Below, one piece after another: positions 31,393-39,103 of a stretch of 64,000 nucleotides of DNA. The notes under the pieces were generated by a model. The model worked only from the letters and a program-made list of their open reading frames with translations, was not told the DNA's origin and ran no database searches. This DNA is from Dictyostelium discoideum (Eukaryota), in contig CM000153.2 of the NCBI GenBank assembly GCA_000004695.1, forward strand, positions 1,248,001 through 1,312,000, given 5' to 3'. Both the position numbers and the translations under genes were made by a program. Numbering within the stretch: position 1 is the stretch's first letter; every line of letters begins with the position of its first letter.

Positions 31393-32147
31393 TTTATCTT
31401 TTTTGGTAACCCTGAAGGTATTGTTGAACTGAAAATTTTTTACAAAAAAAAAAAAAAAAAAATAAATAAAAATAAAAAATTCAAAAAAATTCATAAAAAA
31501 AAAAAAAAAAAATAAACAAAACAAAACAAATTTAATCAATAACTAAAAAATTAAATAAAAATAAATTCTTTTAAAAGTGTTTAAATATTTGTTTGAATTT
31601 TTTTATTTTATTTTATTTTTTCATTTTTATTTTTTAAAAATTAATAAAAATTAATTTGTTTAAAAATATATTTGTGATGATCTTTTTTTTTTTTTTTTTT
31701 TTTTTATTGAGGGTTTATTATAAAAAAAAAAATAAAAAATAAAATATTTTTGTAAGTAATGTAATTATTTTCGGTGTTAGTTGAAATTGTTATTTTTAAT
31801 TTATTTGACCTTCATAAAAAATCTCGAAAATCGTAAAAAACGTTTCATTTCTTTTTTTTAAAAAAAGTGTAAATCCCGGTATAGGCTCATCGGCACTAAT
31901 TAAAAAAAAAAAAATAAAATTTTTTTTTTTTTTTTTTTTCTAATTTTAATAAACACATTGCTTTACTTTTTTTTTTTTTTTTTTATATATTTTTTATTTT
32001 TTATTTTTCACTTTTTATTTTATTTTAATTTCATTCACACATCTCACCCTATTTTTTTTTAGTACTTTTCACATAACATAAACTTCATCTTTTTAAAAAA
32101 AAAAAAAAATAAAACAAATAAAGAAAGAAATTAAATAAATATTAATA

Positions 32148-32455
32148 ATGACAACAGCAATAAATAATAATATTGTAAATAAAGAGTTTGACTTAAAAGA
32201 TAAAACTTTTTTAGCATCTGGTAAAACCAAAACCATTTATCAATTAAATAAAGAAGATCAATATGTTTTAATTGAATCAAATTCAGCAATTACAGCTGGT
32301 GACGGTGCAAAAAAGGATATTTTACCAAATAAAGACATTTATTCAACAACTACAACCGTTAACAATTTCAAAGTATTACAATTATCTGGTATTAATACCC
32401 ATTTTGTTAAACAAGTAAGTTTTATTATAAAATAAATTAAATTAAAATAAATAAT

Positions 32456-32504
<49 letters not shown>

Positions 32505-33256
32505 AAATTATTAATAATTTTTTTATTTATTTTCATCTTTTTAAAAAATTTAAGGTTGAACCAAATGCATTCATTGCAAAGAAATGTTCAATGATTCCAT
32601 TGGAAGTAATTGTTAGAAGATTAGCAACTGGTAGTTATTTAAAAAGAAATACACATGTTACAGAGGGTACTAAATTCAATCCACCATTAATCGAATTTAC
32701 ATTCAAAGATGATGTTCAACATGATCCATTAGTTACTGAACAAGATATTTTAGAGATGAATTTAAAGATTGGTGGCGTTCCAATCACTTCAAAATTATTA
32801 TCTCAAACTAGACATATTGCAACTTTATCATTTGAAGCTTTAGAAAGAGCTTGGCAATCACTTGATGTAACTTTAGTTGATTTTAAAGTAGGTTTAAATA
32901 TATATATGTCTCTATACATTTAAAAAGAAATATTAATACAAATTTAATCTATATTATTTTTATTATTTTCCTAGGTTGAATTTGGTATTACATCACAAGG
33001 TGAATTAATTTTAGCAGATGTTATTGATAATGATTCATGGAGAATTTGGCCAAAAGGTGATAAAACATTAATGAAAGATAAACAAGTTTATCGTAATCTT
33101 CCATCTGCACTCAATACACCAGGTGCAACACCAACAACACAATCTGGTCCATTACTTAATACTTTATCAGATCAACAATTAAAAATGATTGAAGATAATT
33201 ATGCTTGGGTTGCAACTTCCACTGAAAAATTAGTTGAATTCACTGCTGCAAATTTA

Positions 33257-33287
<31 letters not shown>

Positions 33288-35703
33288 GTAATAATAATAA
33301 TAATAATACAAGTTCTACATCAGTATAATATCATTATTTATATTACTTCATTCCTCCTCCCCATCATCATCGTCATCATCATGTATATAAAATACCCTCT
33401 TTCACACTACCATACCCTTTCTTAATCAATAACAACACATATTTGTGTTTTTTTTTTTTTTTTTTATTCTTTTATTTTTTATTCCTTTTTTTTTTTTTTT
33501 TTTTTTTATCATTTGTTTTTTTTATTCTTAAAATTATTTCAATTGTTTTTTTTTTATAATAATGAGAAAGATATGGAAAAAGAAAGAGGTATATTTTATA
33601 TTTTTTACATTATTTATATACTAATATAAATATATGAAATTATTATTATAATTATAGAGATCAAATAGTTTACCAAATGTACCATCAATAACTACAACAC
33701 CAACTCTTCACCATCATCATCATCATCATCAACAACAACAAAGTGGTGTTGGTAATAATAATAATGTTAATTCAGGATTTCAAGTTCAATTAAATCAACC
33801 ATTAGTTGGAATTATTATGGGTAGTCAATCAGATTGGGAAACTATGAAATTAGCAGCAAATACATTAACAACATTAGGTGTACCATTTGAAACTAGAATT
33901 GTATCAGCACATAGAACACCTGATAGATTATTTGAATATGCAAAAACAGCAAAGAGTAGAGGATTAAAAATTGTGATTGCAGGTGCTGGTGGTGCTGCTC
34001 ATTTACCTGGCATGGTTGCTGCATTAACTCCATTGCCTGTATTTGGTGTACCAGTGCAATCCAAAGCATTGAGTGGTGTTGATAGTTTATTATCAATCGT
34101 TCAAATGCCTGCTGGTATTCCTGTTGGTACTGTTGCAATTGGTGCTGCTGGTGCTACAAATGCTGCTTTATTATCTGCTGCTGTTTTGGCTCCTTATTAC
34201 CCTTCAATCGAGTTAAGTTTAGATTTATATAGAAAGAAACAAACTGATGCAGTTGCTGAAATACCTGTTGATAATCCAACATCAACATCAACTACTACTA
34301 CTACTACAACTACATCAAATGCAACATCAATTTTATCAGCAATTCATACTTCAACAATTAATAGTAATACATCATCACATAATAATAATCAACAACAGCA
34401 ACAACAACAACAAACAATATTACCAACACAACCAACTATAATTAATACACCAACACCAGTTAGATCATCAGTATCAAGATCACAATCACCATTACCATCA
34501 GGTAATGGAAGTAGTATTATATCACAAGAAAAGACACCATTATCAACATTTGTACTTTCAACATGTAGACCATCAGCATTGGTATTGCCACCAGGTTCAA
34601 CCATTGGTATTTTGGGTGGCGGTCAATTAGCAAGAATGATGGCTATTGCAGCAGCACAATTAGGTTATAAGACTCATATTTTCTGTCCAGAGAATGATCC
34701 ATCCGCTTCACATGTTGCAACCTATACCACTAAATCAAACTATAACAACTATTCAGCATTGGACATTTTCGCAAGACAAGTCGATGTTGTAACCTATGAA
34801 TTTGAAAATATTATGGTTGAACCAGTTGAATATCTAACCAAACAAGTTGCAGTATTCCCAGATCCAAAGATTTTAAGAACTTGTCAAGATCGTGTTTTAG
34901 AGAAAACATTCATTCAATCATTGGATATACCAACAGCACAATTCCAATCTGTCGAATCATTTAACGATTTAAAGAGTGCAATTGAAAAGATTGGTTATCC
35001 AGCAATTCTTAAATCAAATACTATGGGTTATGATGGTAAAGGTCAAGTTAAATTAACCGATCAAGTCGATCTTGAACAAGCTTGGAAAAAGGTTACCTCT
35101 GAAACTTGTGCAACCAAAGCAATACTTGAACAATATATAGAGTTTGAATCAGAAGCATCAGTTATTGTAGCACGTGCTTTAGATGGAACAGAGTTAACCT
35201 TCCCATTGGTTACCAATAAACATCGTAATCATATTTTACGTCAAACCATTGCACCAGCTCAATTGCCAGAATATATTCATAAACAAGCCAATGAAATTGG
35301 TTTAAAGATTGCTCGTTCCAATGGTTTGGTTGGTATTATTGCCGTCGAATTATTTGTAGTGAAAAACAATGAAACAGGTCAATACTCTTTAATGGTAAAT
35401 GAATTGGCACCAAGACCACACAATAGTGGTCATTGGACCATCGAAGGTTGTGTAACCTCTCAATTTGAACAATTGATTCGTTGTGTTTGTGGTTTGCCTT
35501 TGGGTTCAGTCGATTTCACTAAACGTATAAGTGAAGCTGAATTTATTCAACAACAAATTCCACCAATTGTAATGACAAATCTTTTAGGTCAAGAAGTTAA
35601 CGGTTGGGAAAAAATACTTCAAACTAAAGGTTCACATCTTCATATCTATGCTAAAGGTGATGCAAAAGAAGGTCGTAAAATGGGTCATGTTACTCAACAA
35701 TAA
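32148..35703 (+). CDS. purC/E: Trifunctional purine-biosynthesis protein: SAICAR synthetase (PurC) + AIR carboxylase PurE + N5-CAIR synthetase/ATP-grasp PurK; join(32148..32414,32555..32887,32975..33322,33658..35703) = 997 aa
   Basis: Exon 1 ...[11 protein letters not shown]..; GTAAGT at 32415. Exon 2 (acceptor tttaag 32554) ..[19 protein letters not shown].. (PurC). GTAGGT donor at 32888. Exon 3 (acceptor ttttcctag 32974) [30 protein letters not shown]...(N)n..TSSTS. The only way to reach the downstream domain is a GTATAA donor at 33323 and acceptor ataattatag at 33657, both phase 0. Exon 4 ...[29 protein letters not shown]...VPV (PurE), poly-T/Q linker, ..[27 protein letters not shown]...DGKGQ...[17 protein letters not shown].. 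(PurK ATP-grasp). The spliced length is exactly 997 aa. This matches my memory of the Dictyostelium purC/E product length. Confidence 0.65.
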
Positions 35704-35819
35704 AAAAAAAATTAAAAAAAATAAAAATAAAATTTAAAATTAATTTTTAGATATTTTCCAATTAGACTACTTTTATAATTTTTTTTTATTTAAAAATTTA
35801 GCAGTTTAATAAAGTATTT

Positions 35820-36060
35820 AAATTTCCCAATAAAAAAAATAAAAATAAAAAAAAAAAAAACAGATTCATAAATTTAAATCTGTTTTTTTTTAAGGTTTAA
35901 TAAAAATATCATCTTTTTGTTTTTTTTTTTTTTTTTTTTGTTGGGAAATTTAAATAGTTTATTAAAATCTTTATTTAAATTAAAAAAAAAAAGTTTTTTT
36001 ATTTTTTATTGGGAAATTTAAATAGTTTATTGAAATCTTTATTTAAATTTAATAAAAAAG
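35820..36060. repeat. Composite repeat downstream of purC/E: inverted copies of aaatttcccaataaaaaa and a tandem about 70-bp duplication (ttgggaaatttaaatagtttatt[a/g]aaatctttatttaaatt), plus a 6-bp-stem hairpin (cagattcataaatttaaatctg) followed by T9
   Basis: 35821-35840 aaatttcccaataaaaaaaa versus 35938-35955 and 36008-36025 tttgttgggaaattt / ttattgggaaattt (reverse-complement relationship). 35943-35990 and 36013-36058 are near-identical. 35858-35888 is a palindromic stem + T-run. Confidence 0.7.
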
Positions 36061-36280
36061 TTTTTTTTATTATTTATTTTTTAAGATATTAATAAAGGAA
36101 AATAAAAAACCTTTAATATTTAAATTTAATAAAATAAATAATATATAAAAAACCTTTTTTTTTTTATTATTTTTTTATTTTTTTTTTTTTTTTATTTTTG
36201 TTTTTTTTTTTATTTTTCCAAAAAAAAAAAAAATTAAAAATAAAAAAAAAATAAACCACACAAAAGATTTAAAAAAAAAA

Positions 36281-39103
36281 ATGATATCATTAAAATTAAT
36301 AATTTTAAAATTTTTTATTTTAATTAAATTAATAAATTCATTACCATCAGAATTTAATGTTATTGGACCATTTCCAATTGGAGAAAGAGAGGAAGGATTA
36401 GATAGTTTAAAAGCATATGGTGGTATTTTTGAAATACCAATTGGAGATGATACAATGTATCCATCAGAATTGGGTACAAATGGAGTTGTTGGATGGGAAA
36501 AAGTACAATCAACAAGTGGTGGATATTTATCAATTGATTGGAGTGATATTGTTGATTGGTCATTTTTACAACAAACTTGGGGTTGGTCAATTTGGTTATG
36601 GTATGGATATGCCATTGGTTCATTCAATGTGGAAAATTCTGGTTCATACATTATCAATTGTTCAGGTACTAGACAATATTTCATTCAATCAACAACAACA
36701 ACAAACACCAACAATCAAATATTTGAATTCTCTGGTGATTTTTATGGATATGGTACAGGTCAACAATTAATTCACCTAAATCAATCAACAACTTATAATT
36801 TAATAGTTAGAATGCAAAGCTCAGTTAGATTATCACAATCACCTAATTCTCAATTTTCATGTTCTTTGACGCCAATTCAAAATAATCAATATATTACAGT
36901 TTTAAATTCTGAAACTTTAATTTCAGATTTAATAAATGGTGAATTAGCAACACCTTTTGCAACAATTACAATTTTTAATAATGGAATTTATAGTAATGAT
37001 AATAATGATAAAAATAATAATATTATTGATTTAATTAATGTTACAGTTAATAATAATACTCAATCAATAATTGATGTCAAATTATTAAATAATTCAAATT
37101 TAAATATATTAGCAGGTCAGAAAATGTCATTACCATTAGAGATTACAATTGGTTCACAAATTAATTGTCCATTTAATTTAACATTAAATATTGAATCAAA
37201 TGGAGAGATTATTGGTGAAACAGTAATTGAATTTAATTGTACAGAATGGGGTAATCCATATTTATATACATTTTTAGATTATGATAATACTGTTCAATAT
37301 GCAATTGCTATACCACCAACAGAATCATGTAGTGATAGTGAAGGTGAAACTATTTGTGGGGTAATGTTAGCAACACATGGTGCTGGTGTTGAAGCATCTT
37401 CACCATTTTGGATGAACGCTATACCACCACAACAATCATTATGGATTATTTTACCAACTGGAAGAAGATCATGGGGATATGATTGGGAATCATCTTCAAG
37501 ATTGAATGTAATGAGTTCAATTGACTACTTGGTAAACAATTTACCTGGTGTTCCAAATCAATTGAAATCACAATATCAAGTAAATGGTGAGAAAATCTTA
37601 TTCGTTGGTCATTCTTGTGGTGGTCATGGATGTGTTAGTCTTTTATCAAGATTTGGTGATATGGCAATTGGTGGAATGTGTGCTGCAGGTTTTGTTAAAC
37701 TTCAATTCTATGTTTTCTACAATACAAGACCTGGCTTCTCTTATATTGACCCTTCCCTACAGGGTTTATTAATGGCATCGATTGCAGAGAATGATAATGA
37801 TCTTTACACTTCAAATATTGTTGGTATACCATTGATGGTAAGGTATGGTGAAAATGATACCAATGTAAATCCTTGGCATAGTCGTAGAATTGCAAGAATG
37901 GTTGATGAACAATCCAATCAACTTTCATCAGTCACCATTAGTGAAGTACCAAACTCTGGACATTGGTTTGATGGCATATTGAATGACCAATATGTATTGA
38001 ATTGGTATAATCAATTGACAGAGAGTTCATTGTTTTCTCAACCACCAATACCAAAGGTGATAACAGTGACTAGTCATAATCCTTCATCATCAGGTTCAAG
38101 GGCAAATATTAAAATACTTCAAACTATAAACCCATCACGTGTTGCAAAGATTCAAATTGTTCAGATCAATAACGAACAAGGCGAGTTGGTTTGGATTTTA
38201 TCAACTCAAAATGTACGTAGATTTGGGTTTCAATCAACACCAATTCGTACCCAAGGTCTACCAATTAGTGTCACTATTGATGGTCAGCCATTTACAACTG
38301 AATTTTTACCAACAACTCATTTCGCAAGATTAGATAAATGGTTACCTGATTGGAATACAACCACCGATACAACTTGGACTCAAACTGAACGTTCACCATT
38401 AACCAGTGGTCCAATTCGTCAAATCTTTGAAAAACCATTTACAATTATTTATGGTACAAATTCAACAAATATTGATTTATTCCAATGGGGTTCAGTTTTT
38501 ATTTCAAACTTTTATAATACCTATGGACGTGGTTCACCAAATATTTTAGCAGATATTGATTTCGTTGAACCAGAGATTTGTTCCTCAAATGATAATTACA
38601 TTTTGTTGGGTAATAGTTTTCAAAATTTAGTTACCTCAAAATATCAATCATTATTACCAGTGGTTTTTAATTGGGATAACTCTTTTTCGGTGGGTCCATC
38701 CTCTCCATACTCTTATCCTGGTACTGGTATTTTATTTTTAGCTCCAAATCCATGTGGTCAAGGTTTAATTTTAGTAGTTGCTGGTTATGATGATCAAGGT
38801 TTTAATAATGCATTACATTCAATTCCACAACGTTCAGGTGTTTTAGTTCCTGATTTTATGGTAGTTGGTAATGATATTTGGAAAGGTAATTATTTATTTA
38901 TTTTAATTATTATTTTTATTTTTATTTTTTTTACTTTTAATTTAAAAACATACTAATCAATTATTTTTATTATTTTATTTTTTTTTATTTTTTTTATTTT
39001 TTTTTTAAAAAAAGGTGCTGGTGGTATCATTTCAACTGGCTTTTGGGATCCAAATTGGTTTGTTTCTTTAGATTCTTCTTATTTCGGTTTTACTCCATTT
39101 TAA
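36281..39103 (+). CDS. Large secreted alpha/beta-hydrolase-like protein (GHSxGG nucleophile motif); join(36281..38885,39015..39103)
   Basis: N-terminal signal peptide MISLKLIILKFFILIKLINSLP. Central ...GVMLATHGAGVEAS...KILFVGHSCGGHGCVSLLSRFGDMAIGGMCAAGFVK resembles GHSxGG esterase/lipase-type elbows. GTAATT donor at 38886 splits the G codon. A 128-nt AT-rich intron and acceptor aaaaaaag (39014) follow. The last exon is GAGGIISTGFWDPNWFVSLDSSYFGFTPF*. Confidence 0.5.

Follow-up and report, generated by a model that had tools for sequence, protein, structure and literature searches.

Among the closest known relatives of the gene reported here are two textbook eukaryotic enzymes. In animal PAICS, represented by the human (2H31) and silkworm (4JA0) enzymes, a PurC domain lies N-terminal to a class II PurE, an aminoimidazole ribonucleotide (AIR) carboxylase that uses no ATP step, and there is no PurK. 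The class II PurE loop of human PAICS, AGRSNGLGP, stands where class I enzymes have AGGAAHLPG, and both PurE and PAICS are octameric in solved structures (2H31, bacterial PurE). Fungal and plant ADE2 / Ade6, including Ade6 of S. octosporus and the plant enzymes, combine PurK with a class I PurE in a single polypeptide, in the order PurK-PurE and without PurC, and take the route through N5-carboxyaminoimidazole ribonucleotide (N5-CAIR). Here, we analyze purC/E (DDB_G0283987), a gene on the + strand of a 64,000-nucleotide (nt) stretch of Dictyostelium discoideum DNA (contig CM000153.2, positions 1,248,001 to 1,312,000; hereafter the window, to which all coordinates refer). It couples a PAICS-type PurC, located N-terminal to PurE, to the chemistry of the fungal and plant enzymes, which relies on a class I PurE together with PurK. 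Our analysis makes it very probable that purC/E is one gene of four exons, in which the intron at the PurC-PurE junction (intron J) is spliced from a weak GTATAA donor to yield a single 997-amino-acid (aa) PurC-PurE-PurK polypeptide.

The 997-aa product displays Pfam domains in the order SAICAR_synt (aa 22-242), AIRC (aa 366-513), preATP-grasp (aa 631-726), ATP-grasp (aa 734-919) and PurK_C (aa 954-995). This order, together with identity to a reference protein of the same length, bears out the original prediction of a triple fusion in which PurE precedes PurK. The first domain is a synthetase of succinylaminoimidazolecarboxamide ribonucleotide (SAICAR), with 203.4 bits for PF01259 (cutoff 20) over aa 22-242. 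Its score for the NCBIfam equivalog of PurC, TIGR00081, is 147 bits and thus under the cutoff (189.9), which fits a PurC of PAICS type and not of bacterial type. The best PDB matches of this domain are silkworm PAICS (4JA0, 216 bits) and human PAICS (2H31, 196 bits), with prokaryotic PurC at 135 bits or less. These comparisons assign the PurC domain to the type seen in animal PAICS. The helix C-terminal to it can be aligned with the human PAICS helix located before PurE (human LQMVKKNFEWVA...), and this helix and the likeness of PurC hint at a PurC-PurE ancestry shared with animals despite the differing PurE class.

The second domain is a class I PurE, as assessed by TIGR01162 (NCBIfam, 205.5 bits, cutoff 149.6) and by loop motifs of class I, SAHRTP and AGGAAHLPG, which do not vary among 11 dictyostelid sequences. 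The third is a full-length PurK, with 453.9 bits for NF004676 (cutoff 387), 362.9 bits for TIGR01161 (cutoff 318.4) and all three Pfam parts. The class I PurE and the PurK that had been proposed from the DNA alone are therefore both recognized above curated cutoffs (TIGR01162 and NF004676). Among solved structures in the PDB, the two domains come closest to bacterial N5-CAIR mutases and PurK, respectively.

The PurC frame ends with ...ACA TCA GTA TAA, and the acceptor of intron J (...aattatAG) ends at 33657. Each of the four exons has a length divisible by three, which puts every intron in phase 0, and the spliced coding sequence is 2994 nt or 997 aa long. Every coordinate originally given for this junction (TAA at 33326, donor at 33323, acceptor to 33657, phase 0, 335 nt) holds, and the predicted total of 997 aa matches the reference AX4 protein (XP_638800.1 / EAL65481.1 / UniProt Q54QE4) residue for residue. 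The reading frame of exon 4 opens right at the acceptor, and its first in-frame ATG is found only at 33817, inside the PurE homology. Because this homology (PLVGIIMGS) starts upstream of that ATG, exon 4 needs an upstream exon. Intron J has the sequence hallmarks of a U2-type spliceosomal intron, i.e. GT at 33323, AG at 33657, ACTAAT at 33620 and a phase-0 joint. ACTAAT is the commonest branch-point hexamer in D. discoideum (PMC2483917). The intron, composed of A100 T175 C42 G18 (18% GC), had been called long for this genome; it does exceed the published median (103-104 nt) and mean (133-143 nt) of D. discoideum introns but, with a standard deviation of 158, it is not extreme (PMC2483917, PMC4683709).

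We compared the locus in seven species: D. discoideum, D. purpureum, P. violaceum, H. album, A. subglobosum, T. lacteum and C. fasciculata. The annotated proteins of the six non-discoideum species were mapped onto the DNA of their loci, and the resulting exon sets reproduce all six proteins exactly. Fused orthologues are annotated in each of these six species and in D. citrinum. An intron occurs at the identical place, just after the PurC tail, in all seven genomes; in A. subglobosum it is an ordinary one (83 nt, GTATGT donor).

Transcript-like support comes from a relative. A 971-aa protein (P0004, 70% identical) is encoded by one uninterrupted PurC-PurE-PurK open reading frame (ORF) on contigs of 3.0-3.3 kb with short AT-rich flanks (L001/L002, from JGI 3300028164 and Logan SRR8446436; these have the same sequence and are possibly the same data). 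Aligned with P. violaceum genomic DNA, the contigs fall into five blocks that equal the five annotated exons, and all 4 introns are missing. They hold CCAACTTCATCG joined directly to AGATTAAATGTAAAT, the exact P. violaceum exon ends that flank its gtataaatc...ctag intron. Most simply, L001/L002 would represent the mature mRNA of a Polysphondylium-like species in which a GTATAA donor is used. The donor first proposed from the letters of one genome is thus backed by a same-site intron in seven genomes and by a contig joining the homologous exon ends. We judge the joint to be real and not a chance frame match because of this conservation and the spliced contig of a relative, not because of arithmetic alone, and splicing of 33323-33657 in D. 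discoideum itself can be inferred with considerable confidence.

Several observations weigh against a single spliced gene. The PurC frame stops exactly at the GTATAA donor, and this donor departs from the other introns of these genes, 15 of 17 of which have a G at +5. In theory, L001/L002 might derive from an intron-less gene rather than from mRNA. As to D. discoideum transcripts, JGI metagenome/metatranscriptome contigs contained 0 exact matches to the beginning of exon 4. A protein search with 209 aa centered on the junction was dominated by matches to bacterial PurE and found no junction, and a search with the 90-aa linker only gave no scoring match. In addition, other, wild D. discoideum strains carry two separate models in GenBank (KAM9943182.1, 317 aa, and KAM9943181.1, 690 aa; 2025 annotations), and intron J has T-runs and an ATG mini-exon able to serve a second gene.

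The stop at the donor is itself conserved. Six of the seven species, which span the major dictyostelid groups, have TC(A/G) followed by the donor GTATA(A/G), so that the in-frame Val-stop is kept and the sole change, A/G at +6, preserves the stop. The orthologous donor of intron 2, in contrast, takes six forms at +4 to +6 among the seven species. Positions +7 to +11 of intron J are also alike across the six GTATAR species. All six use GTA for the "Val", a codon that accounts for just 19-34% of the Val codons in these genes; the product of the frequencies is 2.4e-4, with the species treated as independent. This fits constraint on +3A of the donor. In the six GTATAR species, intron J is also the longest of its gene, and its sense strand is rich in C and poor in G, with a summed C178:G54 as against C110:G124 in other introns (Fisher p = 3e-11). 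A. subglobosum, with its consensus donor, lacks the stop, the length and the C>G features.

These shared features would be expected if the gene had a dual output, in which spliced mRNA gives the trifunctional enzyme, retention of intron J or transcript ending within it gives a stand-alone PurC, and the weak donor sets the ratio. Yet any retained AT-rich intron would stop translation within a few codons, which makes an immediate stop needless, there is no consistent AATAAA signal across species, and the kinship of the species inflates the apparent conservation. For the Polysphondylium-like organism, a scan for unspliced sequence recovered nothing but the spliced contig. Owing to the quick stops in any retained intron, the missing common poly(A) signal and the shared ancestry, we consider a dual output unlikely. 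It is similarly doubtful that the stop within the GTATAR donor is a selected switch setting the ratio of the last enzyme to the three-step unit.

The original prediction had also described the intron as unusually C-rich and singled out a C-rich element that might be conserved in other dictyostelids. The C>G skew of the whole intron stands, in six species, but the quoted run (33353-33383) is not conserved, since D. citrinum lacks it and "cf. discoideum" has a shortened version. This CCT/CAT run (repeat family D8) is similar to the His7-coding CAT stretch of exon 4, and intron J cannot be aligned between dictyostelid groups. We therefore rejected the run as a conserved element and regard it as a variable microsatellite; only the skew is common to the six species. 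A similar C-rich, G-poor look was seen at ~32020-32080, upstream of purC, and in the 5' flank of contig L001.

It is improbable, even more so than a dual output, that the locus holds two genes, a purC of 317 aa ending at TAA 33326-33328 and a purE-purK of 690 aa starting at ATG 33562. The latter would have a 27-nt first exon, a 69-nt intron (33589-33657) with the same acceptor, and T-runs at 33450-33555 as promoter. This model is arithmetically valid, the mini-exon has a GTATAT donor and the short intron has 7% GC; moreover, six species retain a stop immediately behind PurC, and the strain annotations mentioned above adopt the split. A split is also found in the 2025 annotation of D. dimigraforme, the overall range being 309-317 aa for PurC and 684-690 aa for PurE-PurK (P0121, P0128, P0005, P0126). 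However, mini-exon frames vary between the split-annotated strains. In "cf. discoideum" the mini-exon is annotated in another frame (MEKERG, donor GTGTAT), and D. citrinum, which lacks the first mini-exon ATG, is annotated as fused by the same 2025 project. There is no ATG anywhere in intron J of D. purpureum, P. violaceum and T. lacteum, and those present in H. album and C. fasciculata either lie in another frame or run into stops. Furthermore, the 83-nt A. subglobosum intron, with its GTATGT donor, has no immediate stop, the Polysphondylium-like contig has its exons spliced together at the homologous site, and 33658-33816 is an open frame continuous with PurE but without a start codon. The split PurC / PurE-PurK models are probably mis-split annotations, and on this comparative evidence the fused reference model should be kept over them.

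Two further possibilities for intron J were rejected: read-through of the TAA into exon 4, because 335 is not a multiple of three, and a U12-type intron, on sequence, since GTATAA differs from the U12-type consensus GTATCCTT and there is no TCCTTAAC, the second U12-type consensus sequence, near the 3' end. A search for structured RNA across the region (Rfam, permissive threshold) gave one chance-level match only, within the PurE coding sequence.

The single-gene, three-enzyme model is already the public reference annotation. Q54QE4 is named "Bifunctional purine synthesis protein purC/E", and its precomputed Pfam list already has the PurK domains, so that PurK is missing from nothing but the name purC/E. 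According to the cluster table, genome assemblies are the sole source of the exact 997-, 317- and 690-aa products. A literature search on the gene, on N5-CAIR in Dictyostelium and on the fusion yielded one proteomics table only, which pairs Q54QE4 with DDB_G0283987 (PMC10252828), and no paper discussing the PurC-PurE-PurK order. What is novel is the conserved stop-bearing donor of intron J, a small and cheaply testable puzzle of splicing control.

With intron J removed from the GTATAA donor, the 997-aa chain would carry the three enzymes on two low-complexity linkers. Family membership and invariant catalytic motifs suggest that it would harbor three consecutive catalytic activities. From family biochemistry, the PurK part would convert AIR, bicarbonate and ATP to N5-CAIR, the class I PurE part would convert N5-CAIR to carboxyaminoimidazole ribonucleotide (CAIR), and the PurC part would use CAIR, aspartate and ATP to make SAICAR. 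By analogy with PAICS, the chains probably assemble around a PurE octamer, whose core would bear PurC and PurK on flexible Asn/Gln/Thr-rich tethers. Such an assembly would hold the labile N5-CAIR and CAIR near the next active site.

How does this architecture compare with known systems? Although its PurC half is PAICS-like, the purC/E protein is no member of PAICS because it has a class I PurE and a full PurK, and its linkers are long low-complexity runs unlike those of PAICS. Nor is it of ADE2 type, which requires PurK N-terminal to PurE. Among the 120 best database matches, the order is PurK-PurE in 90 (from fungi, plants, algae and some bacteria), PurE-PurK in 16 and PurC-PurE-PurK in 14, in keeping with the earlier claim that the order differs from both ADE2 and the class II, PurK-less PAICS. 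The Dictyostelium PurK part is 40-51% identical to PurE-PurK proteins as against 32-40% to PurK-PurE proteins, which are thus more distant; by sequence, the PurE-PurK proteins are its nearest relatives.

The PurE-PurK order is shared by other amoebozoan and transcriptome/metagenome proteins (P0012-P0021). Three of these (P0012-P0014), encoded on ~2.5-kb contigs from other organisms, have the full PurC-PurE-PurK order with compact linkers and total 804-824 aa, indicating that the fusion exists beyond dictyostelids and also without long linkers. Over their PurE-PurK parts, P0012 and the protein of Planoprotostelium fungivorum (P0017) share 57% identity; at the P. fungivorum locus we looked for PurC and found none encoded. 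In this species, the annotated 826-aa "PurK" (L011 3001-6707) has an unrelated hydrophobic N-terminal 260 aa before PurE-PurK, probably a merged neighboring gene. A marine protist MMETSP transcript (P0079, 924 aa) encodes the same three activities as PurK-PurE-PurC and, the order being opposite, is evidently an independent triple fusion. The amoebozoan arrangement of a PAICS-type PurC, class I PurE and PurK may be an ancestral-like state, from which animal PAICS would have arisen once PurK was lost and PurE had switched class. In that respect, purC/E is a useful data point on the origin of animal PAICS.

The features of the locus are collected in Table 1. The window is extremely AT-rich, and the encoded protein has Asn, Gln and His runs.

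Table 1. Features of the D. discoideum purC/E locus, in window positions
Feature	Position	Strand	Description
Exon 1	32148..32414	+	aa 1-89; ATG at 32148; N-terminal part of SAICAR synthetase (PurC) domain; donor AAACAA followed by gtaagt
Intron 1	32415..32554	+	140 nt, 3.6% GC, consensus GTAAGT donor
Exon 2	32555..32887	+	aa 90-200; PurC domain
Intron 2	32888..32974	+	87 nt; donor GTAGGT
Exon 3	32975..33322	+	aa 201-316; end of PurC domain, PAICS-like C-terminal helix, Asn-rich tail
Junction intron (intron J)	33323..33657	+	335 nt, phase 0, C42:G18, longest of the gene's introns
Donor GTATAA	33323..33328	+	in-frame reading Val-stop; TAA 33326-33328
C-rich run	33353..33383	+	CCT/CAT microsatellite-like; variable among close relatives
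Candidate mini-exon ATGAGAAAGATATGGAAAAAGAAAGAG (MRKIWKKKE)	33562..33588	+	followed by gtatat; judged no conserved coding exon
ACTAAT branch-point-like hexamer	33620..33625	+	ends 32 nt upstream of acceptor
Exon 4	33658..35703	+	aa 317-997 and the TAA stop; PurE and PurK, each preceded by a low-complexity linker
Class I PurE (N5-CAIR mutase) domain	33805..34260	+	aa 366-517; GSQSD, SAHRTP, AGGAAHLPG motifs
PurK (N5-CAIR synthetase, ATP-grasp) domain	34582..35697	+	aa 625-996

The intergenic sequence 3' of purC/E (35779-36061) contains a 68-nt tandem duplicate (35926-35993 / 35994-36061, 90% identical) as well as a small hairpin, CAGATT...AATCTG, enclosed by an imperfect inverted repeat of 88 nt (35779-35866 / 35905-35992). 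The next downstream gene (36281-38956, +) is an 891-aa ORF with orthologues in L009 and L010 that show a weak Peptidase_S9 match, and it adjoins purC/E in "cf. discoideum" and D. citrinum too.

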